Shown here in pieces: positions 1-53,208 of a stretch of 64,000 nt of DNA. The translations under genes were made by a program, and so were the position numbers. The notes under the pieces were generated by a model. That model was not told the DNA's origin and did no database searches. It saw nothing but the letters and a program-made list of their open reading frames with translations. Numbering within the stretch: the first letter of the stretch is position 1; each line of letters opens with the position of its first letter. Origin of the DNA: a virus (lineage: Duplodnaviria; Caudoviricetes); IMG/VR virus record IMGVR_UViG_2883843030_000002, positions 16,370 through 80,369 of that record; one strand, given 5' to 3'.

Positions 1-303
1 TACGACCGCTCCGGTATGGACTTTTCCTACGAGTTCATCTTTGAACGCTGGGGAGGCGGCTACGAAAACAATGGAGCCACAAATCAGGAAAGCGAGATAC
101 TGGATGTTTTCCGGAGTAACTCGTAAGAGTGGCACCCATGCCAATGCCGCGCAGAGTGCAATCACGGCGGGGAAAAGGAATTTCGATTCTGTGTGGTAGT
201 ATGTCACGCTGATAGAGGTTGGTAGTCCTCTTGAGATAACATATGCAATCAGGTATATGACGATGATTGCGAAAGAAATAATTGCGAGTATTGTTTCAGT
301 CAT
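1..303 (-). CDS. Phage multi-pass membrane protein (3' end truncated by window)
   Basis: Read by hand: ATG at 303, MTETILAIISFAIIVIYLIAYVISRGLPTSISVTYYH..., open to the window edge; hydrophobic. Confidence 0.75.
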   Translation of the reverse strand, partial: MTETILAIISFAIIVIYLIAYVISRGLPTSISVTYYHTESKFLFPAVIALCAALAWVPLLRVTPENIQYLAFLICGSIVFVAASPAFKDELVGKVHTGAVV

Positions 304-341
304 AACGATTGGTGTTAAGGCAGCCTGCGGCCGCTGTGATT

Positions 342-659
342 TTAATAAAGGAGTTTGATGGCAATGTCGTACCAAGTGTAGTAGTTTGCGAGGAACGCAA
401 CAACCGATCCGCCGAGACAGCCCACCTGGTCCCATGCAAGGTCCCAAATACAGAAATGGTTTCCCTTCTTCTTGCTATCCTTTATCTCTTTCCAAATACC
501 GAAGGCAAGAGCCACGGCATAGGCGATGCCAGCCGCTATCCATGCTGATGGAAAGTGCATGAATGATACAAGCACACCAATGATGGTGGCGATAACGAAT
601 TCACAGAAGACGTGGAGCTTCTTATCGGCACCAGTCTTGTCATTACAAATCTTTGTCAT
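342..659 (-). CDS. Small phage membrane protein (DKxxH...KE..D motif)
   Basis: ORF 342..731; likely start MTKICNDK at 659, after the upstream stop; three hydrophobic segments. Confidence 0.7.
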   Translation of the reverse strand: MTKICNDKTGADKKLHVFCEFVIATIIGVLVSFMHFPSAWIAAGIAYAVALAFGIWKEIKDSKKKGNHFCIWDLAWDQVGCLGGSVVAFLANYYTWYDIAIKLLY

Positions 660-676
660 ATAGGCGTATTTAGTAT

Positions 677-1174
677 TTATTGACTTTCCGAGTATTCCTC
701 CATGCTGCCGAGAGCCTGGATAGCCATCCATTCCTCTTTACTAACTTGCGCACGATGGGCGGCGATACCTGCTGACACCGCTCCGAGTTCTTCAAAACTA
801 GTGAATGAATGTATCTGCGGAGTACCGTCAGGCTTGCTTCCAAGATTTACCTCTACCGGGAACTGCATAATGCCTCCCTGGATAGCAACGAGCATACCAG
901 TTAGGTCTGTTTTCAGAGCTTCGGAGTATTCCACGGTCATGCCGCCCCATTGGTAGCCGTAACGAAGTTTAAAGTCGCTCTCAGCTTTGATCTCTGCTAC
1001 AATGTCAGCCTTGATTTCGTCAAGTGTCGGCCGATGGTCGTAGGTCTGATACCAATTGTAGCCGGTTTCGTCGTCTTCGGAGTCTTTGCCGAAACCATAG
1101 AAAACAGCCCACTTCTTTGTGCCTATTTTCTCCAGGCCATTCTGCGGGCCTGACGCGCCGTATCTTTTTTCCAT
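677..1174 (-). CDS. DUF4376-like phage protein, possible tail fibre assembly chaperone, downstream of the DGR RT
   Basis: 165 aa; HRPTLDEIK...GYQWGG...FPVEVNLGS resembles the protein I recall following Bacteroides phage DGR RTs. Confidence 0.55.
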   Translation of the reverse strand: MEKRYGASGPQNGLEKIGTKKWAVFYGFGKDSEDDETGYNWYQTYDHRPTLDEIKADIVAEIKAESDFKLRYGYQWGGMTVEYSEALKTDLTGMLVAIQGGIMQFPVEVNLGSKPDGTPQIHSFTSFEELGAVSAGIAAHRAQVSKEEWMAIQALGSMEEYSESQ

Positions 1175-1184
1175 ATTAGAAGTA

Positions 1185-2663
1185 TTATGAGAATGAATAA
1201 ATTCTTAGTGCGCCGGTGCCCTGCTTCTGCACGATTGTTGTCTCTACCGTACCAGGGAGAAGCCCACGTTCTTTCATCTGGTCGAGTAAAGACTTCATTT
1301 CTTCGCTGTCTGTGAAGAATTTATACTCTGTTACATCACCTACAAAGTGGAACAGCACGACATATCGGGATTCTCCCCAACGTGTCTTGATGTCTTTCTC
1401 GTAGTCCAGAAGTTCGATAGGTCTGTTGGTTATCAAGCCAAGCGACATGTGCTGGCAATTGAACCGCTTCTTGCCGTCTGCTGGAGTATATTTCAACCCT
1501 AATTCGCTGAATTTTGCCATATGTTGTCCTGTTAATTTGAAGTATAGATGTTTGCAATCGGCATGGCAGGCCATGCCCTTGAATGAGCCTATGATCTGCT
1601 GTCGCCGCTTTCGGGATTTTACTCGATGTAATGCTCTTGCCGCTTTAACTTTTATTCTTTTTCGGATGAGCGAATAGATTTCTCCAGTTTCTGCATCATA
1701 GAATGTTCTATAGCCGAGAAAATCTACCCCCTCTGTAATGGGGCGTATAGCAAAAGAAACTTTAATAGTCAGTTTGAGGTTTTTTGCCTCAGCAACAAGG
1801 ACTTCATATATTGCCCAGGCTTCTTTCTTATCATGTGCAAAGAATACGATGTCATCGCAATATCTGTAATAATGAAATCGAATAATCTTGTCGCCCTTAC
1901 CAATTATTAACCCCTCGCCGGAATATACCGGAGCCTCAAGCTCTTCGAGATAATGGCATCTGACAACGCCACACATTTTTTTATCGAGCTTGCTGAGGAA
2001 TAGATTAGCAAAGCACTGTGATGAGCGTAGCCCTTTAGATAGCCCTTTTGGCATCACGCAAATAAGATTGTCAATCATCGGCAGTACCAGCGGGTCGCTG
2101 ATATATTCTCTAGCGCACTCCATCATTAAGATTTGGTCTATCGAATCATAGAACCCCTGGAAATCACTCTGTCCGAAGAACATCATATTCTCGATGTCGG
2201 CCCGCAGGTCGTTCACCATTACATGATGGAGCCAGTGCATACCACGCCCTTTGATGCTTGCGGCAGTATTGTGGATGAGCGTAGGATATACATGGCTTTC
2301 AACGGGCCGCATAATTGCCTGTATCCCTATACGCTTGAATACGGGTGGTGCATGAACAATCCTTGCTTTTGGACCGTCCGTAACCTTCATTTCCCGTAGT
2401 TCTTCCCGGTAGATTCTAAAAGACCCATCGCCAAGTTGTTTTTCGAGGAGATTAAGAAACTCTGACTTTTTGGGCCAAAAGTGTTCACGCTGATGTTTGT
2501 TTTCAAGATGACTTACTAAGTAATCGAAACTTTCGGACAGATTATTTGGGTCGATAATCTCGCCGATGAGGTTATCGAGAGGGAATACGTCTGAGTTCGC
2601 CCCGATTATCTGCCGGGACGGTAACTCCACATCCATGAACGGTATTTCTACAATCTTATCCAT
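1185..2663 (-). CDS. DGR reverse transcriptase with fused C-terminal domain
   Basis: YRYCDD catalytic motif, KGLRSSQ (DGR GxxxSQ motif), SIKGRG, DFQGFYDSI, GVDFLGY; frame open to 2807 but likely start ATG 2663 (MDKIVE); adjacent to TR. Confidence 0.95.
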   Translation of the reverse strand: MDKIVEIPFMDVELPSRQIIGANSDVFPLDNLIGEIIDPNNLSESFDYLVSHLENKHQREHFWPKKSEFLNLLEKQLGDGSFRIYREELREMKVTDGPKARIVHAPPVFKRIGIQAIMRPVESHVYPTLIHNTAASIKGRGMHWLHHVMVNDLRADIENMMFFGQSDFQGFYDSIDQILMMECAREYISDPLVLPMIDNLICVMPKGLSKGLRSSQCFANLFLSKLDKKMCGVVRCHYLEELEAPVYSGEGLIIGKGDKIIRFHYYRYCDDIVFFAHDKKEAWAIYEVLVAEAKNLKLTIKVSFAIRPITEGVDFLGYRTFYDAETGEIYSLIRKRIKVKAARALHRVKSRKRRQQIIGSFKGMACHADCKHLYFKLTGQHMAKFSELGLKYTPADGKKRFNCQHMSLGLITNRPIELLDYEKDIKTRWGESRYVVLFHFVGDVTEYKFFTDSEEMKSLLDQMKERGLLPGTVETTIVQKQGTGALRIYSFS

Positions 2664-2816
2664 TATTAAAGCCTTCAGGACTCCTGTGATGTTTCCGCTT
2701 TCCAGACTTTCGTCTGCTGTTGCCGAGGCTCGTATCCCTCGCAGAAATGCAATGACGGACACGCCGCCGAGCAGGGTCTTACGATTCTGTTGACGGTGAG
2801 GGAGCACCGTTTTATC

Positions 2817-2934
2817 CTTAATGTGAGCCGAGAGCTGTTGTTCGTGTTCGAGTTCGAAGAAGCGTTATTCGCGTTCGAGTAGACGAGACCGCCATTCGCG
2901 TTCGCATTGTTGTTCGACCGACCGACGCACCGGC
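2817..2934 (-). repeat. DGR template repeat (TR)
   Basis: 118 bp matching 3103-3220; all 15 mismatches are at A of the minus strand; 12 AAC/AAT codons in the VR reading frame. Confidence 0.97.
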
Positions 2935-3012
2935 TTTGGGATACTCTACCTTTTTTGAAAGTTTCTTTTCCTTGTTATCTCTTGGGGTTATGAGTTTGAC
3001 AATATGCAATGG

Positions 3013-3048
3013 GCTTCGGCCTCGGGCTTTGTTGCCCGAAACCGAAGC
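3013..3048. other. GC-rich hairpin between the target stop and TR (DGR target-recognition hairpin or terminator)
   Basis: gcttcggcctcgggc-tttgtt-gcccgaaaccgaagc, 15-bp stem with 2 mismatches. Confidence 0.6.
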
Positions 3049-3059
3049 GACGCTTTTCG

Positions 3060-6000
3060 TTATGCCGCGCTCTCCGCAGATTCAACTATTTCGAAATTTC
3101 CGCTGAAGGCGAGCCGAGAGCTGACGCTCGTGCTCGAGCTCGAAGAAGCGTAATACGCGCTCGAGAAGACGAGACCGCCATTCGCGTTCGCACTGTAGTA
3201 CGACCGACCGACGCACCGGCCCCTATCATTAGTATAATAGTATCCGTCAGAATAGTTCTTATTCCACTTGCTGTTGTCGGTAGTCACTCGCGAGGCGATT
3301 ATGTCGCAGTATCTGCCAAATTTAACACGACCGATGCAGTATCCAGAGGTGTTTAAGCCTTGGATAACGCTTTCCTCTTTCGTCTGATAGTTGCGGACAA
3401 CATGGTACTTTGCATCAAGCGGGTATGATGATGTCGCAATACGCTTGTCTTTCTTGTACTGAGCGAATGAGGGCACATTGGCGGCAATGAAGTCCATGAC
3501 CTCCCAGTTGCAGCCGACAAAGTTCTGTATACCGAATATAATGTTGCCGATGTTTGAACCGGAATATTTTCTTGTAACCTTTCCATAGCTGTTGAAATTA
3601 TTCTGTCCGGTAACGTACTGTGAGCCACAACCATATCCAGCGTAAGCCTGAATGTCGCGGGTTCCAGTCAACGCCATCACAAGGTTGGCGATGTCCTTGC
3701 TTATCTCATAGCTGATACCGTGGAAACCCTTGCCGCGCATTTCGATAAGATTTAGTATGTCGGCATAGGTATAGTTCATAGTAGAGGTGGGAACAGAAGT
3801 ATTCGTGATGTTGCCCTCGTTGTCGTACTTCCAATCGGCATTTGTTACCGATGTGCCGGTACCTGTGCGAGTTTTTACGCCACTGATTGAACGAGGTCGC
3901 ATAAGAGCGTCAACACTCATGCCGTAGATGCCGACGAAACGCATAGGCACCCATACCCAGTCTGGTTCGATGGCCTCGATAGCGGCACTGTCAACTGCAA
4001 TAGCTTCAAGGTTATCAAAGCCAGTAGGCGATGTGAACACAATCTTCTTGGCACCGCTTGGCACATCGCAGAACACATAATCACCGATTGAGAAATCGAA
4101 TAGTGAATGACTTACGGCCATATTGAATGTACCTACCACTTTGTCGTTTTCGTCTACGAACACCGCGCCAATTTGTGCGTTGTTGAGCCCGGGCCAGCGA
4201 ACCTGCTTCATGCCTTCAACTTCGAGTTCATAGACATTCATGTTGGCGTTATCGACTATCTCGTAGTCTTCGCCCTTTGAGAGTGCCGTCCCGTTATTGG
4301 ATGTATAGACACAAGAGTACGCCTTCACAAGAATATCAGCCAGTTTCTTTCGATTGGTTTTCATTGCCGTGGAGAGTGGCAGAGAGGCGAAACTGCAAGC
4401 AAACAGATATTTTTTCTGATTCTTGAAGTCATTAACGCCTTTATACCAATATAGGCCGAAACCGAGCATCACATCAAAGCCCTCGCCTGCTTGGTCTGTC
4501 GGATCATACTCGGTGCCGTTTGCCATCAGATTGTAGTTGGTATCCATAATCTGACGTGCGAGCAGCTTGGACTCTCGGGAATCGTAGGTGCATCGGTACG
4601 GGTGGGCTGCATCGAATATCTTGACAAAGTGACCGCTTGGCTCATAGTCTTCCTTACTTGTGCCGTTATCGAGATTCGTGATATTCTGACAGTCGTCGTC
4701 GGTATCATCGAAACGGACGCACGAATACTGCGAGTTAAAAAGGGTTAATTGCGGGAAGTATGCTGCAAGGCTGTTAGGCTTGGTTTTGTCAAGTTCGGTG
4801 TCATCAATGAGGTCTTCCATAATCCAACGACCCGTTACGCCAGAACACTGATTGCTTTCCTCATAGGCACTCCCCGTGGGGTCGAGACCTATAGCACCGC
4901 TTGCGCGGAGAGATTTTAGGATAGATGAGGGAGCCGTAATATTCACGTCCGGCAAACGGAGGTAACGGAGGTTAGACGAACCTACGATGCCGCTGATGAG
5001 TGTGTACGGGTCAACATTCGGACAGCCGGCTAGCATGAGGCGGTTAACACTTGACATGCCTGCGATTGTCAAACCTCCGGGATATGTGAGATTCGGCAGG
5101 TTGATAAAGTTTAACTCCGTCATAGTTGCTGGCAACTCCAAAGTGCTTATCGGAGAGGTTTCGGCAGTGCTGATGTTTGTCAGTTCCGAACCTGATGCAA
5201 GCACACTTTCCAGTCGAGGACATTTTGCGGCGTTGATAGATGCCACTTCAGTAGTTCTTACATCGAGGTGAGTGAGGAACGGTAGGTCGCCGAGATTCAT
5301 GTTGGTGAGGAATCCGGTGTTGCCTGGAGATAGTCTCCAGGACTGACGGTGGTTGGTCGAGCCGATAACGATTTTCTCTGCCAGTTTCATCTGCGAGAAC
5401 TGGAAGTTCGGGTCCAAGGAGATTTGCGAGAGGTCAATTTCGCTCATCTGGTCGGCCTGATAGATATAGAGAAGAATATTATCGCCGTGCTGGAAGTTGG
5501 TGAAAGTGCCCTGCTCGCCGGCCTTGAGGTACATGCCCTGCGTTACGTTGCCACCATCGTTACCAATACCAAAGTAGCCGGACTTGGCGGCACGGAAACG
5601 AATTACAGCTCCTGTCTTGGCTCCGATACGACCACCAAGTACGTGGCTTGCATCCTTGAAGTCACCGGTTTGGTAATAACCATCGCGGATGCGCCAACGT
5701 TGCTCAATAAATCGGGGGAGCGACTGACGGCCGGAACCATGGAGTGCGTAATAATAGATATCTGTGTATAGCTCAGAATACTTGATGTATTTGCGCTCAC
5801 AGTCGAACGTACAAACTACCTTGGGCCAGAAAGCAATTCGCTTCTGCACGAAGTAATAGTTCGCGCCTTTAGGCGAGAATGGGCCAGCACCGATACCGTC
5901 GACCTCAGGAAGATTACGCATGAGGTCCACAACACCGGGAAGAGTGAGGGTACCGCCCATAGCATTTGCAACCATTTCCTGATTGTCGCAGCGACGGAGA

Positions 6001-9000
6001 TTGTTCCATAAGATAGAGCCACGGCCGGCGTAGCACTTGTCGTCTTCAGCAGGATCGAGCTCAGCAGGAATTGTGTTACCGCCATCGTTATCTTTACCGT
6101 TGCATGTATCACAGTCGTAAACCTTATTGAAGTACATGCGTATGGGCTCCATCGCCGATGGGGAATGGTATTCTCCATTCTCCACCCAGCAGCCATCTTC
6201 GAGGAAGAACATGGGCTGCATGTTTTTGGCTTGCTGGTCCACAGCGGCGAGATAGTCGGTGAATGTGTAGTAAGCCAGAAGCGACTGAATGCTCATATAA
6301 CGCCATGCGTTATCCCTCCACAACTGTTTCCATGTTGCAGAGAGTGCGGCCTTGGAATAGTCGCAAGAATCACAGAACTTGAGTACATTGAACAGCTCAT
6401 ATGGAACCTTGCGGCCCATTGCGAGGTCTTCCTGCAGTTGGTCGTCGTCAATCATGCACTCGAAATACTGCGTCCATGCCGGGTATGACTGCTGTCCGAG
6501 GCTGAGTTTTGACACCCATGATGACTGCGTTTCGACGGGTGCCATCATATCGTCGATTGATCCGACGCCCATAAACCAGTCCATAGCATCGTATGTGATA
6601 AGCTCATAGCCAGACACTGGATTGAGGACATCTCCGATAATCTGCCACTTGCCGTTGACCTGCTTCATAGAGCCGGTACAGCGGGCCCATTCGCCACCGC
6701 TGTGGCGCATGAAGATGTAGTCACGTCCACAATACTGCGAAAGCAGATATAGCTTGCTCGTATCAAGTCCTTCGGTGGTTTTGAAACGAGCCATAATCTC
6801 CGTGAGTGTTTCCTGGCTTTGGAACTTGCCGGCGGAATTGAAAGTTGCCTTGCCGAAGAATTCAACAAAGTCGCCATAGTTGCGACAGCCTTTGTTGTAG
6901 CCTGATGTGTCTTTGAAACCGAGTGCCACCTGCTCACCCTTGTCTTCTTTCCAGTTGCCACGGGCATGGAACCAGGCATCACTAAGTGAATCGTTGGTTG
7001 CACGGAAAGCGGCAATTGGGTGGTTGGCAGTCGAGTGATTCATTTGCAAGCCGGTTACAGATATACCGCTCTTACTCCACGTGCCGTCGAAGGCCCTCTG
7101 CGCTGGGGTGATATAATCGCTTCCGAGGGCACGGAAAGTGGCATTCATCATATCACACACGCCGCAGTCGTTCGCCATGGATGAATCGGAGTAGTCGACC
7201 TTAACTGTGAGGATAGCTACTGGTATAGAGTTCTCGATCACACGCACATATCCGATGCTGAACAGTTCGTACGTCTTGAGTGCATCAGCATTGGTGTAGT
7301 CGGGATTGAGTGCGGTAATCTTCCAGTTCTTTTCTTTGCAGAGATAGAAGCGGTCGTTTTTGATAGGACGCTTGGCTGAGGTAGTACCCTGACGACGCCA
7401 ACGCACGTTTTCTGCCTTGAAGGACCTCCACGGCAAAGTTGGGTGGAAGTAATAAAGCGTACACAAGAAATTTGTCTTGGTGTCGATATCCGAGTCAAAG
7501 CTGTCGAATGTAGCTTGGGGGGCTACTACAACGTAGTAAGGGAAACCTTTCTCCTTGAGCAGATCCATCGAGGGGCGGTTCTGATTATCGAGGACATTCT
7601 CTGCGTCAAACTCGGCAATCATAGCATTGGTGTCCGTGAGCTTGCAAAGATAGTTTTGGAATGCCTGAGCCCACTCGTAATAGCTATCGTATGCAAGTGT
7701 ATAGTAGAGGTAAAAGTCTCCGTCTGTGCCGTCGAATGAAATCTGCTTTTGGTTGAGAATCGCGCCGGAATTGGAAACATAGCCAATAGCACCGATTTCT
7801 TCACCGTCGACATATAGTTTGATGGTGGAGTAATCAGTGGAGCCACGATTGACGGTTATTGTGGACGGTTCCACAACAATTCCTACTGTAACTTTTTCAC
7901 TGCATCGGAATGAGCGTGTAATCTGCGAGGGCGTACCGTTCTTGCAGCACACCACAATCTTGTTACCGCAGATATAGAAGCCAGCACCAGAGTTAGGATC
8001 GTAGCACTCCATGAGCTTCGCGTCTTCATCCTTAACGTTATTTGTTGCAAAGGCAAACTGGAACGCCATACCATTTGTGCGTTCAGTGGCAGCCGAGCCA
8101 AACGGGGCGTAAGGGATACGGGCTTTGACATTTTCGGCAATACGCAGGCAGTTCTCGTTGAGGTAGGTTGCAAAACCATTCGACGACCAGTTAGCCCCAA
8201 TAACGTCCATAGTATAACCGTTATTGGTAATTGTGTGATCGGCCTCAGAATTCGAACGGCTGGCAAAGTCGTATCCAAAGAGTGCTCCTTCCTTAATGAT
8301 GGCAGAAATAGCAGATCCTACTACGCGCACCGATATAGGACTGGTTTGGCTGGCTCCGCTCTTCGCATAGAATTGTATTATTGTGGAGCCGTCGGTATCG
8401 TAGCCCTGAATCTGCTTGCGTATTGGATAAGTCTGGGAAATGTAGCAATCGTTGGAGATAATTTCCTCTCCGTTCATGTATACTTCTACTGTTGTGGGCT
8501 CCTTACCAGGCGTGTATGCTGCAATCTCCAGTTCGAGATTATCATACAGTCGGACAATGCCATTGTTAACATCGTTGTAACGGAGTGCCACAATGGGTAC
8601 GTTAGACTTTGAGTCAACGCACATTATTGTAGAGTAAATTGTGTTTCCTTTAACGCCCGACGCAACATCCTCGCCGGATATGCGAATTGGATAGGAGCCG
8701 TGCTCAAGACGCTCTCCGCCTCCGAGCACATTGCAAGGATCAATCGAGATTGAGTGCGAATAGCTATCTGTGATGGTCGCCTCGCCGAGTTTCTTCCATT
8801 CGCCGTCAAGATATATCTCGGTCATGACTTTCACACCTTGCTTCGATACGTTATTGGCGAACTTATACATCAGCAGGTTTTTAGACGAGCCGCCTACTTC
8901 TAGTACCGAGCTTGAGGTATAGTTGATAGTCTGCACGGAAGTACAAGTTACATCGACGGCTGTTACCGTAACGGTACGACGCTTCACGTTGCCCTCTGCA

Positions 9001-11249
9001 TCGTAGGCAACGATAGTGAAGTCTCGCTGGGCCGCTTCTGCGAAGTATGGAGTGAAGTCGAACTTGAACGTGTAGTTTGTCGCTGAGGTCGATGAATTCT
9101 GATTGACATTCTCGCTCCATAAGGAAAGCCCGGTTGTTGCGTCGATGATTTCGAGACGACGGATGACGCCCAATACCTCTGTATCGCCATCGAATGTAAC
9201 AGACTTAATGGCAGCATTTGCTATGATGTCAGAACCAAACGCTGCGTATATGGCAGGGTTCTCGAGGTATATAGAGAGCGTGGAGCCACTTGCGGAGCCC
9301 GAACCGGTGCTTTTGGGGAGCATGATGGGATCGCCCATTTCGTTGCCTCGCTTGTCAACAGCCTTGATTATATGGTTGTCGGCATCTTGGTCGAGGTCAA
9401 GATGGTCGAAAGCTGATTGTTGCATTTCGTAGGCCCCCCCTGTTGAAAATGCGTCTTTGCCACCGTTTTCGGGCTGGTCTGAGGTTTTTACAGCACCGCC
9501 GCCGCCAAACTCTTTCCAGAGTTCTTTGTTGGCAAAGTCGGTTACTTCTCCGGTAAATTGGTAGGTTTCCCATTTGTATTCTTCGGCACGAAATGTCAAT
9601 ATAAGACCACTCTTGGCGTAAGTGATGCCGGAAGACTGCTGTGTCGAGAGTATTGCATCAATGGCACTGTCTTTCGTGTAGTAGCCGGTTACGGTTCGGG
9701 GGCAGAGATTATCTACATTGATAATAGCCTCTGCGCCGGCGGACATCCCTGCAAGGTCTATCCAATTCTTGGTACTCTTGAACTGGGCCTCGGTCACGTT
9801 GGGACCGACATATTGATATGTTTTCCAAGAGCCAGCACTAATGGCGAATGTAATCTGCAAACCGAGCAATGCTTTGTCGGCTGCAAAAACTGCATTGAGG
9901 ACATTGTGAGTTTGTGTTTCAGCCATTATGTCCGAGTAATACTCTCCGTCTGGGAGGGGTATTTCTACCGTGGCGTTGAACGTATTGCCGACAGCTGCCC
10001 CACCTCCGCCAAATGGTTTCCATTGGGTGACGTCATTCCAATCGGCATCTTCGTCGAACACATTCTTCTGCCACTGGTATGCTACCCATTTGTATTTCTC
10101 CTCGCCATTACTGCCGAGTTCAGCCATGAGAAAGGTAACTACTGCACCATAGGCTTGGTAAGCTTCATCAACTGAGCTTACTGCACTCTGGAGTGTGTAG
10201 AATGGTTCGTCTGTGTCATAGAGCGCATTCAGGTTGAGGAACAGCGTAGCCATGAGCTGGTGGCTATGGTTCGACAACTGATTTCTATTCTCGATTGACT
10301 GCTCGTAGGCCTCTTTACCCTTGTCTCCGGGGAAAGCAGTGTTTGCGGTCTCTCCGAGCGCGAGGTCATTTCCGATTATTACGAGTTCACTACTACTCCA
10401 ACGAAAGGTCTTGTTGTCAGAGGTGCTGATATAAACTTTGCCAGACTCTGGGGTAACACCATCTGCTGTAACTACCCCAAAATTTTCCTTATCGGCCCAG
10501 TCAGAATAATACTTGAACACCGCCATGTTGAGTTCGAGGTGTCCTTCTTTATCAGTCCAGTAATCACTGAGTCCGGGACGGAGTATGCCACCAGGAATCG
10601 TAGGCGTTGACATTTCGACATCATCTGCCTGCACCGACGGAATGTCTGCCACCGTAGTTCCTCGGAGGGGACGCAGAACGCCGCCCCAGTCTATAACAGA
10701 ATCTTGAGCATAAATCGTACTTACTGCAAGTATGAACTTGTTTGTTTCCTTGTTATACACAAGCATTGCACCGGGCGTGGTTGACTTTGCGCCTGTCGGA
10801 GAGTCTTGGATTGTGATACCTTCGACCATAGCGTGAAACTCAACAACATCGTCAACGAAACCAGGAAGGTATGCTGCCGGCACTTTTGCGTTGGCATCGA
10901 GAGGAGCAATGCCGCTTGGCATACCTTTGGAATCGGTAACTTTCTTAGCTGCTTCGGCTGTACTTTTAGCTGTGTCGGCAGTAGACTGGGCCGCTGTTGC
11001 TTTTGTTTTTGCATCTTTGGCCTCATTGTATGCAGTAGTAGCCGTGTTTGATGCTACTGTTACAGCCTGTTGAAGCGTGTTGTCTTTAGATGCTCGTTCA
11101 CTCGTTTCTGTGGAAAGCGATTGGTCGACGTTCTCGATGATGTCAACAAGGACTTTTCCGACTCGCTCTGCCGTGTTTTTGCCCTCACCGTCCTCATATC
11201 TGATAAGGTCGGCTTGGTTTTTGAGATTGGTTTTATTATTCAGACCCAT
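3060..11249 (-). CDS. Giant tail fibre/receptor-binding protein, DGR target (three internal repeats, CotH-kinase-like region, LRR region, C-terminal CLec-like domain)
   Basis: 2729 aa; NTAERVG and LALGETANTAFPGDKG fibre-type motifs; GCNWE...SSRLAF CLec-type C-terminus containing the VR. Confidence 0.85.
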   Translation of the reverse strand: MGLNNKTNLKNQADLIRYEDGEGKNTAERVGKVLVDIIENVDQSLSTETSERASKDNTLQQAVTVASNTATTAYNEAKDAKTKATAAQSTADTAKSTAEAAKKVTDSKGMPSGIAPLDANAKVPAAYLPGFVDDVVEFHAMVEGITIQDSPTGAKSTTPGAMLVYNKETNKFILAVSTIYAQDSVIDWGGVLRPLRGTTVADIPSVQADDVEMSTPTIPGGILRPGLSDYWTDKEGHLELNMAVFKYYSDWADKENFGVVTADGVTPESGKVYISTSDNKTFRWSSSELVIIGNDLALGETANTAFPGDKGKEAYEQSIENRNQLSNHSHQLMATLFLNLNALYDTDEPFYTLQSAVSSVDEAYQAYGAVVTFLMAELGSNGEEKYKWVAYQWQKNVFDEDADWNDVTQWKPFGGGGAAVGNTFNATVEIPLPDGEYYSDIMAETQTHNVLNAVFAADKALLGLQITFAISAGSWKTYQYVGPNVTEAQFKSTKNWIDLAGMSAGAEAIINVDNLCPRTVTGYYTKDSAIDAILSTQQSSGITYAKSGLILTFRAEEYKWETYQFTGEVTDFANKELWKEFGGGGAVKTSDQPENGGKDAFSTGGAYEMQQSAFDHLDLDQDADNHIIKAVDKRGNEMGDPIMLPKSTGSGSASGSTLSIYLENPAIYAAFGSDIIANAAIKSVTFDGDTEVLGVIRRLEIIDATTGLSLWSENVNQNSSTSATNYTFKFDFTPYFAEAAQRDFTIVAYDAEGNVKRRTVTVTAVDVTCTSVQTINYTSSSVLEVGGSSKNLLMYKFANNVSKQGVKVMTEIYLDGEWKKLGEATITDSYSHSISIDPCNVLGGGERLEHGSYPIRISGEDVASGVKGNTIYSTIMCVDSKSNVPIVALRYNDVNNGIVRLYDNLELEIAAYTPGKEPTTVEVYMNGEEIISNDCYISQTYPIRKQIQGYDTDGSTIIQFYAKSGASQTSPISVRVVGSAISAIIKEGALFGYDFASRSNSEADHTITNNGYTMDVIGANWSSNGFATYLNENCLRIAENVKARIPYAPFGSAATERTNGMAFQFAFATNNVKDEDAKLMECYDPNSGAGFYICGNKIVVCCKNGTPSQITRSFRCSEKVTVGIVVEPSTITVNRGSTDYSTIKLYVDGEEIGAIGYVSNSGAILNQKQISFDGTDGDFYLYYTLAYDSYYEWAQAFQNYLCKLTDTNAMIAEFDAENVLDNQNRPSMDLLKEKGFPYYVVVAPQATFDSFDSDIDTKTNFLCTLYYFHPTLPWRSFKAENVRWRRQGTTSAKRPIKNDRFYLCKEKNWKITALNPDYTNADALKTYELFSIGYVRVIENSIPVAILTVKVDYSDSSMANDCGVCDMMNATFRALGSDYITPAQRAFDGTWSKSGISVTGLQMNHSTANHPIAAFRATNDSLSDAWFHARGNWKEDKGEQVALGFKDTSGYNKGCRNYGDFVEFFGKATFNSAGKFQSQETLTEIMARFKTTEGLDTSKLYLLSQYCGRDYIFMRHSGGEWARCTGSMKQVNGKWQIIGDVLNPVSGYELITYDAMDWFMGVGSIDDMMAPVETQSSWVSKLSLGQQSYPAWTQYFECMIDDDQLQEDLAMGRKVPYELFNVLKFCDSCDYSKAALSATWKQLWRDNAWRYMSIQSLLAYYTFTDYLAAVDQQAKNMQPMFFLEDGCWVENGEYHSPSAMEPIRMYFNKVYDCDTCNGKDNDGGNTIPAELDPAEDDKCYAGRGSILWNNLRRCDNQEMVANAMGGTLTLPGVVDLMRNLPEVDGIGAGPFSPKGANYYFVQKRIAFWPKVVCTFDCERKYIKYSELYTDIYYYALHGSGRQSLPRFIEQRWRIRDGYYQTGDFKDASHVLGGRIGAKTGAVIRFRAAKSGYFGIGNDGGNVTQGMYLKAGEQGTFTNFQHGDNILLYIYQADQMSEIDLSQISLDPNFQFSQMKLAEKIVIGSTNHRQSWRLSPGNTGFLTNMNLGDLPFLTHLDVRTTEVASINAAKCPRLESVLASGSELTNISTAETSPISTLELPATMTELNFINLPNLTYPGGLTIAGMSSVNRLMLAGCPNVDPYTLISGIVGSSNLRYLRLPDVNITAPSSILKSLRASGAIGLDPTGSAYEESNQCSGVTGRWIMEDLIDDTELDKTKPNSLAAYFPQLTLFNSQYSCVRFDDTDDDCQNITNLDNGTSKEDYEPSGHFVKIFDAAHPYRCTYDSRESKLLARQIMDTNYNLMANGTEYDPTDQAGEGFDVMLGFGLYWYKGVNDFKNQKKYLFACSFASLPLSTAMKTNRKKLADILVKAYSCVYTSNNGTALSKGEDYEIVDNANMNVYELEVEGMKQVRWPGLNNAQIGAVFVDENDKVVGTFNMAVSHSLFDFSIGDYVFCDVPSGAKKIVFTSPTGFDNLEAIAVDSAAIEAIEPDWVWVPMRFVGIYGMSVDALMRPRSISGVKTRTGTGTSVTNADWKYDNEGNITNTSVPTSTMNYTYADILNLIEMRGKGFHGISYEISKDIANLVMALTGTRDIQAYAGYGCGSQYVTGQNNFNSYGKVTRKYSGSNIGNIIFGIQNFVGCNWEVMDFIAANVPSFAQYKKDKRIATSSYPLDAKYHVVRNYQTKEESVIQGLNTSGYCIGRVKFGRYCDIIASRVTTDNSKWNKNYSDGYYYTNDRGRCVGRSYYSANANGGLVFSSAYYASSSSSTSVSSRLAFSGNFEIVESAESAA
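3103..3220 (-). repeat. DGR variable repeat (VR) at the 3' end of the target gene
   Basis: Encodes RCVGRSYYSANANGGLVFSSAYYASSSSSTSVSSRLAF versus TR RCVGRSNNNANANGGLVYSNANNASSNSNTNNSSRLTL. Confidence 0.97.
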
Positions 11250-11263
11250 AGTAAGATTGTTTT

Positions 11264-11779
11264 TTAACTTCCTATTTTGCGAATGGTGCAGCCACCAGCG
11301 GAGATCACTCGACGGTTACGTCCTGATTGGAAAAGATTTTGAGATTTACAAAAGGCAACACACTCGTTGAGATAGTGGTGTGCTACTTCAAGAGCGTTGT
11401 TGTAGCAATCTGACCGCTCTTTACTCGAAATTTCACGAGAGTAGTCGCCTTGCTTTACGACAGTGCCGAAGCGGGTACTTTGGAAGTCTCCTGTCATTAC
11501 ATTCTGCGCATACACATAGTATGAGAGTGCGACTTTGAGACCCATAAAAGACCGCATTTCTCCATTACAGTCATTGTATGTGCCGCCATTAAGCAGGAGC
11601 TTGTATATGTCGTTACTGTCGCCTTCGGCGAGGATTTTTAAGAACAACGCGTCTCCGAGTGCCGGCTTAATATTCATTTGCTCAGCTTCGGTGATGTATG
11701 CGAGTAATTTTGAATCTTCGACCTTACCGATGGGTCGGCCAAGTGTTACTACTTCTTCAGGGCTTATTATGTGCTCCAT
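11264..11779 (-). CDS. Putative head-tail adaptor (DUF6712-like)
   Basis: YITEAEQMNIKPALGDALF...GLKVALSYYVYA; follows portal. Confidence 0.65.
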   Translation of the reverse strand: MEHIISPEEVVTLGRPIGKVEDSKLLAYITEAEQMNIKPALGDALFLKILAEGDSNDIYKLLLNGGTYNDCNGEMRSFMGLKVALSYYVYAQNVMTGDFQSTRFGTVVKQGDYSREISSKERSDCYNNALEVAHHYLNECVAFCKSQNLFQSGRNRRVISAGGCTIRKIGS

Positions 11780-12956
11780 CGCTTTCGTTTGATTGGTTGC
11801 TCACATAGACCAAAGGCTGAATCGAGTAGTCACCGTTTGGGTTGACTTCTTCATACCAGTGGTCGAATATCTTTTTCAGTGCTCGAGATATGGCACGTCT
11901 CTCTTTGGCGACATACGAGTTGTAATACTCGTAGGCTTCTTTGACTGCCGTTCCACTCCAACCAGTCTTGCCAGTGCGTATGAGATACCATGGCTCTTGG
12001 CCGAAAGCTGAATAGATTCGCTCGGTCGTACTTTTTTCCGTAGAGTCGAACTTATCATCAAAGTTGGTGGATTCAAACGGAACAAATTCCGGCTTATCTT
12101 CTTCAGAATTATAGGTTACATCTATGATGGAACAGGCATTTACATCGCCTTGGAATGCATCAAGGCTCTTAACGAAGTCTATGTCGTCAAGAGTCGATTC
12201 ATTCCTTGTATCTCCATTATCATCAAGGCCGGTCGCCACCCCCTTTTTGTGCATGAGCATACCTGACATCAGGAAGTTATTTCGGGTGTTGCGATATTTG
12301 ACGTTATCCAGTCCTTCGTCTGTCGAAAGATTGGTCACCACTTTGTCGTAAATCGGTTTAGGATACTCGAAACGACCATCCATGGAGTACCAAAGAATTT
12401 GGCCCTTATATTTGTCAATACCGCCGGATTTGACGATTTGAGCAAGGATTACTTCTTTAATGGGATTGAACGTGTATATTTTATCCACATGTCCCTTATC
12501 CACAAGGATTTTATTACCCTTACGCGTCTTATGGCCAGTCCAGTCCGGATGTATATTTATGTAAGTTACCGATCCGCTTTCGGTTTCTTCCTCAAGACGA
12601 CAGTTTTGGAACGGTATATGGTTAAGTTCTACGATTTCGCAAGCAAGATTGTAATTGACATGAAGTGCGAAACCATGATATAATGCCATATCCTGAGCTA
12701 TAAGTCCCAATATATCGTCGACTGTATCTCCGGCTCTATTTACGACATATTCTGAAAAGTTGGTGTCGTTTAATCCGTTACCTTCTATGAATGTCTGATA
12801 GCGGTCACAACATCCTCCCCCTGTCGGACTATTCAATATCAAGTCTAGCATACGCTGAGGATATAGGTTATCCTTTCCGTATGCCTGGATATTGAGAGTA
12901 CTCCAGTAGGCGGTTGTGAGACGCTTGGGAGAACGTTTGACGCTATTTATATTCAT
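11757..12956 (-). CDS. Portal protein
   Basis: 399 aa; YGKDNLYPQ...SPT, HIPFQNCRL, YPKPIY motifs of Bacteroidetes phage portals. Confidence 0.8.
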   Translation of the reverse strand: MNINSVKRSPKRLTTAYWSTLNIQAYGKDNLYPQRMLDLILNSPTGGGCCDRYQTFIEGNGLNDTNFSEYVVNRAGDTVDDILGLIAQDMALYHGFALHVNYNLACEIVELNHIPFQNCRLEEETESGSVTYINIHPDWTGHKTRKGNKILVDKGHVDKIYTFNPIKEVILAQIVKSGGIDKYKGQILWYSMDGRFEYPKPIYDKVVTNLSTDEGLDNVKYRNTRNNFLMSGMLMHKKGVATGLDDNGDTRNESTLDDIDFVKSLDAFQGDVNACSIIDVTYNSEEDKPEFVPFESTNFDDKFDSTEKSTTERIYSAFGQEPWYLIRTGKTGWSGTAVKEAYEYYNSYVAKERRAISRALKKIFDHWYEEVNPNGDYSIQPLVYVSNQSNESDGAHNKP

Positions 12957-15486: not shown

Positions 15487-16812
15487 TTACTTTTTACCAC
15501 GTTTCTCGCGTTTTGCGGTGGTAGCCTCGCGGCGTTCACGGATAGCCTTCTGAGTCTTTGACTCAGTGGGTGTCGCTTGGCCTCCACCGGCGGGTGCTCC
15601 ATGAGAAACGAAGCGGCGGTTGGTAGGGGTGAAAGATGAGCGCATGCCGATGGTTGCGTCAAGCCATGCCATGCCTCCGGCCTTGTTGACTTTAGCAACG
15701 ATGGGACGGGCACTCTTGAGCTCTGTTTCCTGCTTTTCAATGGTCGCCTGCAGCTCTTCGACAGTCGCCTGCAGCTCTTCCACCTGTGGTGCATTCTCTT
15801 CGGGAGAGGCGTCCGGGTCGATTTCTTTGAGGCGTCCGGTGAGTTCAGCGATGATGGCGCGAATCTCGTCAGGGTCGTCCATAGAGTCGATGGGGTCGGG
15901 TTCGTCGTCATTCTGCTCGGGATCGATGATGTCGGTGATGATTTCACCTTCGACTACGACCTTTACGCCGTCGTCGAGAACATAGGTACCGTCAGGATAG
16001 GCAACGTCGCCAATCTGCGGATCGCCGTCTTCACGTTCTACCGTGAACTCATTGCCGTCGGCTGCAGTCACAACCTGGGCTTTCGCACGAGCGATGCCGG
16101 CTTTGGCAAGAAAGCGAGCGAAAGCAGAGGGCTTCTTTTCAGCAGGGCTACCTGCTTGGGGTTTGGGTTTAGCCATAGTTTTGTTATTGGTTTGAGATTT
16201 GATATTTCGTTTCCTAAGTCTGTGAGCGGTCGTGGGTACGAGAATGTGGCTGATAAAACCAAGTTCTTGGGCGCGGTCTGCGTCGATGAACGTGTTCTTA
16301 TCCATGAGAGCTTGTAATGCTTTGCGATTGGCTCCAGTACGTTCCACATAGAGATCCAAAATGCGGTCTTGCTCTTCACGCAGTGCTTTTGACTGCACTT
16401 CGAGCTCAGTAATAAGAGCATCGAGCTTATCAGGTGTGTAGCGGAGAGGCAGGTCTGTCATCAGATACTCGTATGCTGGATTGTGCAAGCACATACGCAT
16501 ATTCTTGTTTGCGTACCGCCGTTCAGCAGGTGCTGCAAGAAGTATTACTGAGGCGATGGAGGAACATTCGCCCTCAACCGTTGCAGATACGGTCTTACCC
16601 GACCGGCGGAGAGCATCGTAGATAGCCCAACCCTCACCACAGTCGCCGCCGCAGCAATGAATTCGCACGTCGATGACGTTGTCATCTTCCGGTATAGCGT
16701 CGATGAACTCCTGCACGTCTTTGTAGCAAACCCCCTCGGGGCCGCCCATAGACACCGTGAAGGTCTTCTGTTCCTCGTCCACTATGTCGCTGTAGATTTT
16801 GAGTTTTGCCAT
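15487..16812 (-). CDS. Clp-type prohead protease with scaffold-like C-terminus
   Basis: IHCCGGD, CSSIAS, HNP, AQELGF ClpP motifs; likely start MAKLKIY at 16812. Confidence 0.88.
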   Translation of the reverse strand: MAKLKIYSDIVDEEQKTFTVSMGGPEGVCYKDVQEFIDAIPEDDNVIDVRIHCCGGDCGEGWAIYDALRRSGKTVSATVEGECSSIASVILLAAPAERRYANKNMRMCLHNPAYEYLMTDLPLRYTPDKLDALITELEVQSKALREEQDRILDLYVERTGANRKALQALMDKNTFIDADRAQELGFISHILVPTTAHRLRKRNIKSQTNNKTMAKPKPQAGSPAEKKPSAFARFLAKAGIARAKAQVVTAADGNEFTVEREDGDPQIGDVAYPDGTYVLDDGVKVVVEGEIITDIIDPEQNDDEPDPIDSMDDPDEIRAIIAELTGRLKEIDPDASPEENAPQVEELQATVEELQATIEKQETELKSARPIVAKVNKAGGMAWLDATIGMRSSFTPTNRRFVSHGAPAGGGQATPTESKTQKAIRERREATTAKREKRGKK

Positions 16813-16845
16813 TGCAGGATTGGTGTTGTTAGTATAATTCAATGT

Positions 16846-16853
16846 CAAAGTTA
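16846..16853 (-). promoter_or_regulatory. Bacteroidetes -7 promoter element for the head operon
   Basis: TAACTTTG (TAnnTTTG) about 35 nt upstream of the Clp ATG. Confidence 0.5.
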
Positions 16854-17071
16854 AGCATGGATTATGAGCTATAAATCAAGGTCTTATGAGAATGAGGTGC
16901 AATGATTGATGCAGTGCTTTTAGGGGCGATTATCGGACGCCAAATATTTATGTATCAAACACTTCGCAAGAATGGCAAATGTGTCGTAAGAATATCACCG
17001 GTGAGAGGCGGGCAGTCCTCGTCGAAACCACTATTTTCAGGTTATGGTGTGTTTCCAAAACAAAATGAAAC

Positions 17072-17100
17072 AAAAAAGGCCCGGCGATATGCCGAGCCTT
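17072..17100 (-). terminator. Rho-independent terminator ending the accessory island
   Basis: Minus strand AAGGCTCGGC-ATATC-GCCGGGCCTT followed by a T tract. Confidence 0.75.
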
Positions 17101-17144
17101 GTCAGTGAAATAACAGTTTCACTCGTTTATGTATTTTGTTGAGT

Positions 17145-17441
17145 TTATTCCTCTCCCGCTGGTGTGAATTTAAGTTCGCAATCGAACATTCCGATATAGT
17201 CGGCCTGATCAATTATTTCTATATCTCCGGTAATGGCATATCTGCCTTCGGATGTTCTTTCCACATCAAAGTATAATTGGTAATCCATTTCGTCAATGGC
17301 TACTGATAGAATTGAACCGTCCGCAGATGCAATTCGAGCACAGTAAACAGCTATTATTTCTTGGAGGGATCTCGTGGAAATATCTTTTTTGATTTCTACG
17401 AGCCTAACAGTCGCTGATTTTATGATACTATCGATGTCCAT
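17145..17441 (-). CDS. Hypothetical phage protein
   Basis: 98-aa ORF abutting the upstream gene. Confidence 0.6.
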   Translation of the reverse strand: MDIDSIIKSATVRLVEIKKDISTRSLQEIIAVYCARIASADGSILSVAIDEMDYQLYFDVERTSEGRYAITGDIEIIDQADYIGMFDCELKFTPAGEE

Positions 17442-51809: not shown

Positions 51810-53189
51810 TCAGTCGGCAAGTCCAAAGAGCGGAAGAATATCGCCCTGGCGGTTGTATGACTGGTCGTTTGGAAGATTGAGGTTGAACTCGTAGTTGATG
51901 GCGGCGATATACTCCTCGCGTGTAAGCTCACGCACCTTGTGGGCACCCCATCCCCAGTAACCCGATTTGTTGTACTGCATGAATGGCTCAAAGCCGAAAC
52001 GACCGAACATTGCCTGTACCTGCTCTTTCGTAAGGAACTTTTGGAAAAACCATTGGCCTTCCTGCATGAAAGCTGTCAGGCCATTCTCGTCGAAGAATTG
52101 CACTGTAGTGGTCGAGTCGACGGTGTTGCGCTTTGCCTTATACTGTTTCTCGGCTACTTCCTTTGATCGGCCAGACACAAATACCTTGCCGCCCATCTTC
52201 GTGAAAAGGTTGAGACAAATTAATACCGCATCCTCTGCGAACTGAGTGTTTACGGAATTGAGTACCGCATCACAAATAGTGTAGTCGAACACGCCACCGT
52301 CGTGAATTCCGTTCTCTTTGATGTAGGCAATGAAAGCGTCGATCATTTCGTGGCCCTTTGCGATGGAAATTCCTTTCAGGTTATGGTTGAAGAACTCGAG
52401 CCCTATTGCATAACGATATCCCAACTCGCGACGGAGCTTGTTGATGAACATTGCCTTGCCACAGCCGAAGTCGAGAATCTTGACCTGACGACGATCTTCT
52501 TTCTCCAGATGAGGCACCACCTCTCGATAGAGCACCGACCAATCTATGCCCTTATGGCGAGGGGGTTGGGCTCGGCCTTGCATGAAGTCTGCACGTTCAA
52601 TGTGCTCGTAGTTGAATACACCGTAGTCCTTCTTGAAGTAGTAGTCGAAGATTCCTTTCTTCGCCGGGTCCAGGAAGTAGCAATGAACGGGATAGCCTAT
52701 AGTGTCAGCAGCCTTGATATAATTATTGCCAAACACTACTTCGTTGCCACATACGATAGCGCAGAGAGCGTCGCCGTGCTTAACGATGAGGCGGCAAATG
52801 TCTTTCACGATAGATGGATTGCAGTCGGCAATCTTGAAGTCGCTTGCCGGCACGTCGTCGTGGAATGTTCCCCAATCTCTTGGAGCCAGGCACTCGCTGT
52901 TCTTTTCGGGTTCCAGTTCAACGCCGTTGTGAATCTGGTTGAAGAGGATTTCAGATTCGATGTCTACGCCGCTGATGAAGTATGCCGGGGCCTCCTCGAT
53001 TCCTACAGCTGTTGCTGCTTTGGTACGCTGATGGCCGGCGACGATTGTCATGTTATCGCGGTTGACGATTATAGGAAGAATGAACCCCAAAGTTTTTAGA
53101 CTGCCTTTGAGTTCGACGAACGCTTCTTCCGTAATCTTTCGGGGGTTGTAAGACGCGGGCTTTATGTCCGCAAATTTAACTCGTTCCAT
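51810..53189 (-). CDS. ParB/Srx-like domain fused to a class I SAM-dependent methyltransferase
   Basis: PASYNPR, AGHQR; ILDFGCGK and DAVLNSV; likely start MERVKF. Confidence 0.85.
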   Translation of the reverse strand: MERVKFADIKPASYNPRKITEEAFVELKGSLKTLGFILPIIVNRDNMTIVAGHQRTKAATAVGIEEAPAYFISGVDIESEILFNQIHNGVELEPEKNSECLAPRDWGTFHDDVPASDFKIADCNPSIVKDICRLIVKHGDALCAIVCGNEVVFGNNYIKAADTIGYPVHCYFLDPAKKGIFDYYFKKDYGVFNYEHIERADFMQGRAQPPRHKGIDWSVLYREVVPHLEKEDRRQVKILDFGCGKAMFINKLRRELGYRYAIGLEFFNHNLKGISIAKGHEMIDAFIAYIKENGIHDGGVFDYTICDAVLNSVNTQFAEDAVLICLNLFTKMGGKVFVSGRSKEVAEKQYKAKRNTVDSTTTVQFFDENGLTAFMQEGQWFFQKFLTKEQVQAMFGRFGFEPFMQYNKSGYWGWGAHKVRELTREEYIAAINYEFNLNLPNDQSYNRQGDILPLFGLAD

Positions 53190-53208
53190 AATTAGTTGAT
53201 GATGGGAT

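Follow-up and report, generated by a model that had tools for sequence, protein, structure and literature searches.

A Hankyphage-type diversity-generating retroelement with one template repeat and two predicted target genes in a prophage of a probable Muribaculaceae host

A 64,000-nt stretch of the viral record IMGVR_UViG_2883843030_000002 (Caudoviricetes; positions 16,370 to 80,369), hereafter the window, corresponds to G000:C2:62188-126187, where it reaches the end of its contig, and was found to carry a diversity-generating retroelement (DGR) on its minus strand. The element consists of a template repeat (TR), a variable repeat (VR1) at the end of a giant target gene, and a reverse transcriptase (RT) gene, with a second variable repeat (VR2) in a small gene of the same genome outside the window. 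The DGR sequence signature was present, the parts were intact, and variation among near-identical genomes was observed in the variable repeats only. We consider it very likely that this is a functional or very recently functional DGR of the type known from Hankyphage (Bacteroides phage p00, BK010646), located in a prophage of at least 80 kb beside a tRNA-Ser gene and serving two targets.

The TR and VR1 aligned without gaps at an offset of 286 nt (2817-2934 against 3103-3220) with mismatches at 15 of 118 positions, and were the sole direct repeat longer than 31 nt recovered by a repeat search of window positions 1-12000. The repeat pair and its ends, where sequences resembling the initiation of mutagenic homing site (IMH) and its TR counterpart (IMH*) are found, are as follows.

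VR1, variable repeat, 3103-3220 (core 3111-3220), minus strand: all 15 mismatches to the TR are at TR adenines.
TR, template repeat, 2817-2934, minus strand: 27 adenines in the 110-nt core.
IMH-like 3′ end of VR1, 3104-3121, minus strand: GCTCTCGGCTCGCCTTCA, common to VR1 and VR2 (same 18 nt).
IMH*-like 3′ end of the TR, 2818-2835, minus strand: GCTCTCGGCTCACATTAA.

Each of the 15 mismatches is a T on the plus strand of the 2817-2934 copy, i.e., an adenine on the coding (minus) strand. The 110-nt core (2825-2934 against 3111-3220) contains 12 of them, all at codon positions 1 or 2, and 24 of the 27 core TR adenines lie in 12 in-frame AAY codons. The hypergeometric chance of mismatches at adenines only was 4.9e-9 for the core (12 of 12; 27 A in 110 nt) and 8.3e-11 for the full 118 nt (15 of 15; 31 A). 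A sequence-only reading of the window had described 110-nt repeats with 12 mismatches, all at coding-strand adenines, an 8-bp extension with three more, 27 core adenines with 24 in AAY codons, and no mismatch at any other base; alignment and recount returned exactly the same numbers, the extension proved real, and the absence of non-A mismatches between TR and VR1 held over all 118 nt. The 12 AAY codons and three single A positions would together allow about 8e15 peptide variants per target.

The same reading had offered the 8-bp extension (2817-2824 against 3103-3110) as the IMH*/IMH end, and this was supported by a comparison of 10 distinct VR copies (6 VR1 and 4 VR2) from the window phage and its relatives. 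At the three IMH positions the TRs have A, A, A, whereas 9 of the 10 VR copies have G, C, C, a uniformity that a fixed IMH predicts and free mutagenesis does not, so that the extension probably functions as the IMH/IMH* end. The sole exception (L014) has A, A, C, and this, together with 'SRLTF' variants in relatives of the small target protein, suggests that transfer sometimes extends a few bases further. A 21-nt stretch just upstream of the TR (AAACTTTCAAAAAAGGTAGAG, 2944-2964, minus strand) was nearly invariant in relatives whose flanks around it were otherwise only 76-86% identical, and may act as a promoter or form the 5′ portion of the TR RNA.

The repeats lie within a compact cassette on the minus strand, which comprises the following features.

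Target gene 1, 3060-11249, minus strand: 2729-aa virion-module protein (phrog_14959, E = 0), with VR1 at residues about 2677-2716.
15-bp hairpin, 3013-3048, minus strand, just past the target stop codon: the DNA fold of 2990-3125 gave -27.1 kcal/mol, z = -2.66.
18-nt hairpin between TR and RT-3, 2793-2810, minus strand: predicted fold.
RT-3 RNA (RF03068), 2634-2786, minus strand, overlapping the RT start codon: Rfam match.
DGR reverse transcriptase, 1185-2663, minus strand: 492 aa, with GLRSSQ at 2016-2033 and YCDD at 1851-1862.
RT C-terminal domain, 1188-1526, minus strand: residues about 380-492, phrog_19665.
CH1-type gene, 677-1174, minus strand, directly downstream of the RT: 165 aa, pI 4.67, distant DUF4376 relative.

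The RT motifs GxxxSQ, the hallmark of DGR-clade RTs, and YxDD, both named in the sequence-only reading, were found as GLRSSQ (residues 211-216) and YCDD (residues 268-271), and were invariant or nearly so in 34 aligned RT relatives. The protein matched phrog_1423 (E = 7.6e-65), and its best solved relative was the 328-aa RT 8ub7_A (E = 1.2e-11, query residues 60-377 aligned), which we take to be the BPP-1 RT; beyond this alignment about 115 residues are left as a C-terminal extension. A start at GTG 2807 had been proposed for the gene. As the RT relatives are 492 aa and align from residue 1 (ATG at 2663), and a structured RNA, RT-3 (2634-2786), covers the stretch up to GTG 2807, the start is most likely ATG 2663 instead and the gene occupies 1185-2663. 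With an A-only signature, an adjacent DGR-type RT and all parts intact, the proposal that the element uses a BPP-1-type mutagenic mechanism was supported. VR1 ends 13 codons ahead of the target stop codon, no ORF (open reading frame) was found in the 168-nt VR1-TR gap or between TR and RT, and a holin-like gene follows the CH1 ORF.

No Pfam match to avd, HRDC or MutS was obtained among the neighbouring ORFs, and a whole-genome search for avd with PF05635 gave a single sub-threshold match on contig C22 (27.2 bits, cut-off 33.8). The avd gene is missing from 29% of DGRs and from lineage 3 (PMC5758913) and is therefore not a universal DGR feature. The earlier anatomy named true parts of the cassette and was incomplete, with VR2, the RT-3 RNA, the CH1 gene and the absence of avd being added here.

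The adenine bias was shared by the wider family. Viral contigs were scanned with an RT alignment and 80 loci were kept of 235 confirmed, of which 75, plus the window, had enough upstream DNA for a TR/VR survey. In 62 of these 76 loci a TR/VR pair was found, about 82-129 nt long and offset by 241-342 nt, with 754 mismatches at TR adenines compared to 11 elsewhere, while 13 loci displayed no pair within 1.5 kb. Locus L091 (IMGVR_UViG_2837005551_000010) was set aside: the repeat upstream of its RT extends over 422 nt, far beyond the usual 110 nt, at an offset of 312 nt, and of its mismatches 16 fall on A and 10 on other bases.

A whole-genome BLAST search with the TR identified a third copy of the repeat, VR2, 17 kb downstream of VR1. 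VR2 differs from the TR at 14 adenines (11 in the core, 3 in the IMH part) and at one non-A position, the final aligned base, which lies beyond the IMH. Its surroundings include the left end of the prophage.

VR2, G000:C2:48272-48375 (L003:6084-6187), minus strand: 13.8 kb before the window start, outside the window.
192-aa ORF holding VR2, L003:5988-6566: about 1 kb from the integrase.
tRNA-Ser(GGA) gene, L003:3391-3479, then tyrosine integrase, L003:3568-4908: prophage left end.

Scanning public collections with the TR pattern (N at A sites) recovered 6 viral and 4 metagenome loci. All six TR copies, the window's included, keep 27 A in the core, compared to 10-15 A in the VRs of relatives. 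The 11 full-length VR copies, seven compared with the TR of their own contig and four with the best available TR (3 of the 11 being identical duplicates), displayed 162 mismatches at TR adenines and none elsewhere, with 12-17 per copy. Two of the loci (L010 and L013) show no difference in flanks of 1000 nt upstream and 51 nt downstream (100% identity), yet their VRs differ at 15 sites. A further locus, from a metagenome (L017), is 98.74% identical over 1904 nt to the prophage VR2 gene (18 mismatches and one gap) and so represents essentially the same phage; 17 of its 18 mismatches lie inside VR2 and one upstream. The L017 VR2 is full length, and its 17 differences from the window TR are all at A (17/17). 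Among the 39 closest relatives of the giant target, and likewise among 102 relatives of the 192-aa target, the flanks are conserved and variation is confined to AAY-encoded positions. Assembled contigs of four sequencing runs were also placed on window positions 1200-5200; an 836-nt mouse-gut contig from run X1 (3143-3960) differed at nine positions, all of them TR-A sites, and over the four runs 14 of the 17 differences listed inside VR1 were at TR-A sites. TR-A-only differences in near-identical DNA, at both targets, make recent activity of the lineage at VR1 and VR2 well supported. The sequence-only statement that the element 'is or was recently active' therefore stands for the lineage, in which near-identical contigs differ only at TR-A, the support covering the lineage and not this strain.

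From the integrase onward the ORFs scanned were of phage type; among their products are an amidase-type lysin, a protease, a portal-like protein, a tape measure and a terminase. Almost every long ORF of the window is on the minus strand. The run of phage-type ORFs from tRNA-Ser and integrase onward places the element in a prophage of at least 80 kb, whose right end lies beyond the available sequence since the window reaches the contig end. The TR-VR2 spacing of about 17 kb is kept in a related 89-kb viral contig (L011/L014). Proteins 90-92% identical to the RT and target are labelled 'Muribaculaceae bacterium' in their sources, and DNA of the prophage was present in mouse-gut metagenome runs from 6 studies; the host is probably a mouse-gut bacterium of the Bacteroidales, family Muribaculaceae. 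Between the lysis genes and VR2 the prophage also encodes a SAM (S-adenosylmethionine) synthetase, a dUTPase/dCTP-deaminase-like protein and a DUF1848 protein (L003:14589-15851, 16546-17187 and 6936-7934, respectively). Two proteins of 614 and 483 aa with ParB-like N-terminal domains are encoded on the minus strand of the window (25450-27294 and 51810-53261); their matches are to phrog_18726 and phrog_5475 and to families of ParB-like partition proteins and nucleases.

The RT-3 match within the cassette scored 67.1 bits (gathering score 40.5; E = 2.6e-15), covers model positions 1-148 of 148 and has the conserved segment GAGCCUCGGCAAC. In 35 of 37 loci (19 of a first 20 and 16 of 17 more; misses L057 and L066) this RNA lies directly ahead of the RT. 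The 17 include Hankyphage p00 (146.6 bits) and Bacteroides phage BKO1-TP3, both with the RNA in this place; at the other two RT loci of the window's genome it was not found. Its presence in 35 of 37 loci suggests that RT-3 is the group-defining spacer RNA of Hankyphage-type DGRs. The RT-1 to RT-19 RNAs were defined by closeness to RT genes (Weinberg 2017, PMC5737381), and nothing linking RT-3 with a DGR was found in the literature searched; RF03068 can be labelled the spacer RNA of this lineage of DGRs. Folding of the TR-to-RT stretch by itself gave an unremarkable minimum free energy (z = -0.84), so the case for structure in this stretch comes from the Rfam match. A crude script predicted a hairpin of at least 5 pairs between TR and RT-3 in 34 of 45 distinct relatives, with varying sequences, and relative L021 displayed a two-sided change in the stem. 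The 3013-3048 hairpin beyond the target stop codon is modelled as a possible terminator or target-site hairpin. A promoter/terminator scan of 600-3400 stayed at background (7 promoter-like sites compared to 4.2 expected and 4 terminator-like sites compared to 3.0), the promoter scan using a sigma-70 model that does not cover Bacteroidota promoters.

The giant 2729-aa target has no Pfam match and has 679 relatives of 1500-4776 aa (E ≤ 0.001). Its gene follows the protease and the portal-like gene within the virion module, and its N-terminal part weakly matches the minor tail protein family phrog_1446 (E = 1.2e-5). The 192-aa VR2 target has 2331 relatives of 105-336 aa and no recognisable domain (no Pfam match), and sits at the lysogeny end beside the integrase, away from the tail genes. 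Sequence searches with the tip of the giant target gave no Pfam match at E ≤ 10 and no PDB match by phmmer, and a PDB profile search returned only a leucine-rich repeat (LRR)-type match (E = 0.15); in the ESM Atlas cluster for the tip, FGE-sulfatase was assigned to 17% of members with a score of 0.97. The protein end encoded by VR1 is a putative receptor-binding tip, as the sequence-only reading had proposed. An unlikely alternative, and the one that retains most weight, is a working DGR whose targets are not host-receptor binders, the giant protein being a mucus/glycan adhesin or a multi-domain enzyme carrier and the 192-aa protein a non-virion factor. The absence of a Pfam domain from both targets and the position of the small one by the integrase are consistent with this, as are the mucus adherence proposed for the Hankyphage target (PMC6199706) and variable proteins exceeding 2000 aa in Bacteroides that have CotH-kinase-like, carbohydrate-binding and LRR motifs (bioRxiv 10.1101/2024.11.15.621889). 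Against it stand the place of the giant gene in the virion module with its weak phrog_1446 match, and the DUF4376-type gene, a known fibre chaperone (PMC7289586), that follows the cassette. A smaller target in another DGR of the same genome (contig C11) also argues for a tail role, as it is a 'tail protein' of phrog_5302 (E = 1.2e-134) whose tip region is shared, matching the end of phrog_14959.

The C-terminal part of the RT (residues about 380-492) matches positions 2-104 of 105 of phrog_19665 (E = 7.7e-16), a 105-position family annotated 'unknown function', and the domain is kept across the RT family. Folding with 36 sequences gave a beta-rich small-barrel model (pLDDT, predicted local distance difference test, 80.8). 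Its best Foldseek match was PrgE, at a weak E = 0.047, followed by RPA70N and the PRD1 single-strand-binding protein (SSB), and VIA-align gave Z = 5.2-4.6 to Rim1, the PRD1 SSB and bacterial SSBs, values within the background of common arrangements. Both lists consist mainly of single-strand-binding proteins of the OB (oligonucleotide/oligosaccharide-binding) fold, all with weak scores (E ≥ 0.047; Z ≤ 5.2), and an OB-like reading is therefore only a lead.

A HMMER scan with this domain gave 143 cluster representatives. Most (91 of 143) are shorter than 160 aa and mostly matched from the first residue, i.e., they are free proteins; 26 are 320-699 aa with the match at the C-terminus, i.e., RT fusions; 24 are 160-319 aa, of which the two inspected were RT fragments; and 2 are at least 700 aa. 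When genomes were searched with a profile built on the free form, matches came from 10 of 301 in the order to which the host belongs and from 2 of 401 in a phylum-wide sample; the window's own genome is counted in both. Each of the 13 places matched has a DGR-type RT gene no more than 1.5 kb away (tblastn E ≤ 4.5e-15), and 7 of the 13 also have an A-biased repeat pair in the DNA examined. The free gene (about 105 aa) sits where avd normally does, between VR and TR, or right after the RT.

All three RT loci of the window's genome carry the domain, in three different arrangements: fused to the RT at C2, as a free ORF between VR and TR at C11, and as a free 133-aa frame after the RT at C8. The C11 element, the third DGR (L005, G000:C11:366000-381000, minus strand), lies in another prophage-like region with its TR at 7420-7531, VR at 8097-8208 and RT at 6287-7285. 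It has 16 of 16 mismatches at TR-A, a short 332-aa RT and a 470-aa target, and its free phrog_19665 ORF (7535-7990, in the VR-TR gap) is broken by an in-frame TAG. In the C8 element (L007, G000:C8:52143-55892) the VR is at 751-864, the TR at 983-1096 and the RT runs from about 1501; 13 of 15 mismatches are at TR-A and 2 elsewhere, and the free domain lies at G000:C8:54951-55202, just past the RT.

Fused or free, and in some loci at the place of avd, the phrog_19665 domain is seen beside DGR RTs only, and on this gene linkage it is a good candidate for an accessory module standing in for Avd. No description of the RT C-terminal domain was found in the literature searched, which did not extend to the supplements of PMC5758913 (PAG1-4 genes).

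Of 80 loci, 79 have a homologue of the CH1 gene downstream of the RT, the sole miss being a locus that ends inside the RT. The window CH1 ORF has homologues in BKO1-TP3 (E = 8e-27) and Hankyphage (BLASTP E = 4e-8), in each case the ORF that follows the RT. The Hankyphage homologue passes the Pfam threshold for DUF4376 (PF14301; 29.7 bits, cut-off 25); the window ORF has no Pfam match at E ≤ 1, and its DUF4376 link is transitive via that homologue. DUF4376 is the C-terminal domain of the tail-fibre chaperones V22 gp27 and A5 gp9 of Alteromonas phages (PMC7289586, PMC10579305). It is doubtful that the retrohoming accessory factor standing in for Avd is CH1 (677-1174) rather than the RT C-terminal domain, although the position of CH1 directly downstream of the RT in nearly all loci would fit such a role, as would its listing as an accessory gene exclusive to DGRs without avd, HRDC or MSL (Wu 2018, PMC5758913). 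Its pI of 4.67 is acidic, whereas Avd is highly basic and nucleic-acid-binding (PMC5758913), and the domain of its Hankyphage homologue is that of proven tail-fibre chaperones, so CH1 could be linked with the fibre gene and not with the RT. The DUF4376 homology, together with an acidic pI unlike that of basic Avd, leads us to lean towards CH1 being a chaperone of the giant fibre inherited with the target gene, as chaperone genes follow fibre genes. The combined proposal, in which phrog_19665 is an unnamed Avd-like, OB-like barrel holding the TR/RT-3 RNA or the nascent cDNA (complementary DNA) and CH1 is the fibre chaperone, is put forward tentatively.

Several observations weigh against a functional, receptor-diversifying element as proposed here. 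Three of the 17 VR1 differences listed in the four runs (3148, 3153 and 3162) lie outside TR-A sites, so the restriction of variation to TR adenines expected by the sequence-only reading held in these contigs for 14 differences and not for the other three; these came from contigs of other depth or with indels, which presumably represent related phages. The comparison was made with assembled contigs only, giving no within-sample variant rates for this strain; no listed contig spans the whole of 1200-5200, the listed pieces end near the repeats, and some parts are uncovered. VR2 in this prophage has a 6-nt in-frame deletion relative to the TR, with CGAAC repeats on both sides and absent from the near-identical L017, which implies that no clean rewrite from the present TR has occurred since, slippage in the course of cDNA synthesis being the other way in which the deletion could have arisen. 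For the final 350 aa of the giant target the predicted fold was too poor (pLDDT 48.4) to reveal a C-type-lectin fold; the top Foldseek match of this model, the DGR variable protein TaqVP (5vf4), has E = 0.35 and is unusable as evidence. The OB-like C-terminal domain, at Z ≤ 5.2, falls inside the range of common arrangements.

The VR2 deletion would be expected of a relic DGR, in which the signature is inherited and neither target is diversified any longer in this prophage, and a comparison based on contigs leaves room for one. We regard this as improbable: none of the RT, TR, RT-3 RNA and IMH is broken or shortened, the 118 nt of VR1 are free of the non-A mismatches that a frozen VR would gather, and near-identical copies of the same phage hold other VR1 and VR2 alleles. 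Least of all can the pair be credited to ordinary tandem duplication or gene conversion with random divergence and no retrohoming, for which the existence of a 118-nt repeat speaks and nothing more, and which is refuted by the base bias (15 of 15 mismatches on one base of one copy, p = 8e-11), by the 754 to 11 distribution over 62 related loci and by the adjacent DGR-type RT and RT-3 RNA. A functional or very recently functional DGR remains the favoured explanation.

By analogy with work on BPP-1 and Hankyphage, from which the following steps are drawn, an RNA spanning the TR, the hairpin and RT-3 would be copied by the 492-aa RT, which would misincorporate opposite template adenines. The resulting cDNA would replace the homologous VR in a direction set by the GC-richer IMH at the 3′ end of the VR. 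The predicted recipients are the giant 2729-aa virion protein (VR1) and the 192-aa protein by the integrase (VR2). The phrog_19665 domain of the RT may supply a nucleic-acid-handling accessory function in place of Avd, and CH1 could act either as a chaperone-like partner of the giant fibre or as a second accessory factor.

As a DGR the element is ordinary, adding a Muribaculaceae-type mouse-gut prophage to the Hankyphage family, which is known to be active in culture. It is a clean natural example of one TR serving two targets of very different size, and in a mouse commensal host the evolution of phage and host can be followed in vivo. For DGR specialists the points of interest are the RT-3 assignment, the separable phrog_19665 domain and the chaperone-like CH1. 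A separable C-terminal domain beside DGR RTs is a concrete candidate for how avd-less DGRs work, and, if the chaperone proposal is true, the 'CH1 accessory gene' of the literature would be a fibre chaperone and not a retrohoming factor.

Compared to BPP-1, the window element displays the same adenine-specific TR-to-VR transfer, the same asymmetry of IMH and IMH*, and a VR at the C-terminal end of a phage tail-type protein. It differs in having no avd and two targets, an RT of 492 aa with an added C-terminal domain compared to 328 aa, and RT-3 rather than RT-10 as spacer RNA. The giant target is presumably about seven times longer than Mtd, the BPP-1 target. The closest named phages are the Bacteroides phages BKO1-TP3 (PQ571269) and BS-TP4 (PQ571277), of about 65 kb, whose RTs are 41-42% identical over 95-96% of the query and which have a giant protein, an RT and a DUF4376-annotated gene in the same order; their annotations are without TR or VR features. 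At the nucleotide level, megablast of the first 12 kb of the window against named phages gave only a 400-nt match of 76% identity, to BKO1-TP3/BS-TP4.

On its sequence features the element is a complete Hankyphage-type DGR of lineage 3a, architecture E1, in the scheme of Wu 2018: an acidic CH1 without avd, HRDC or MSL, the RT-3 RNA and a target of more than 2000 aa with a C-terminal VR were all found. Lineage 3a/E1 (TR-RT-CH1) is described as lacking avd, HRDC and MSL and as confined to Bacteroides and relatives, with an acidic CH1 of 160-169 aa and pI 4.7 ± 0.2 (Wu 2018, PMC5758913). About 20% of DGR RTs have a C-terminal extension, of up to about 150 aa and without recognisable motif, and that study reports no motif in CH1 or the RT extension (PMC5758913), whereas links to DUF4376 and phrog_19665 were obtained here.

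Hankyphage itself has the target, VR, TR, RT-3, RT and CH1/DUF4376 ORF in the same order. In both elements the VR is at the extreme C-terminus of a giant target (about 2245 aa in Hankyphage compared to 2729 aa here), the TR is about 116-118 nt and the VR-TR gap is short; the Hankyphage repeats are 117 bp with 14 A-mismatches and its VR is at residues 2188-2225 (Benler 2018, PMC6199706). The p00 RT is 38% identical over 88% of the query and has the same C-terminal extension. Hankyphage differs in being a 43-kb Mu-like transposable phage (PMC12135933), compared to a prophage of at least 80 kb with tRNA-Ser and tyrosine integrase here, and in having a 64-aa ORF between VR and TR, where the window element has a 168-nt gap without an ORF. 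The window element further differs in its second, remote target and in its host, a mouse-gut Bacteroidales bacterium that is probably a member of the Muribaculaceae. The Hankyphage DGR, with which it has so much of its organisation in common, was active in culture and in virion DNA (PMC12135933).

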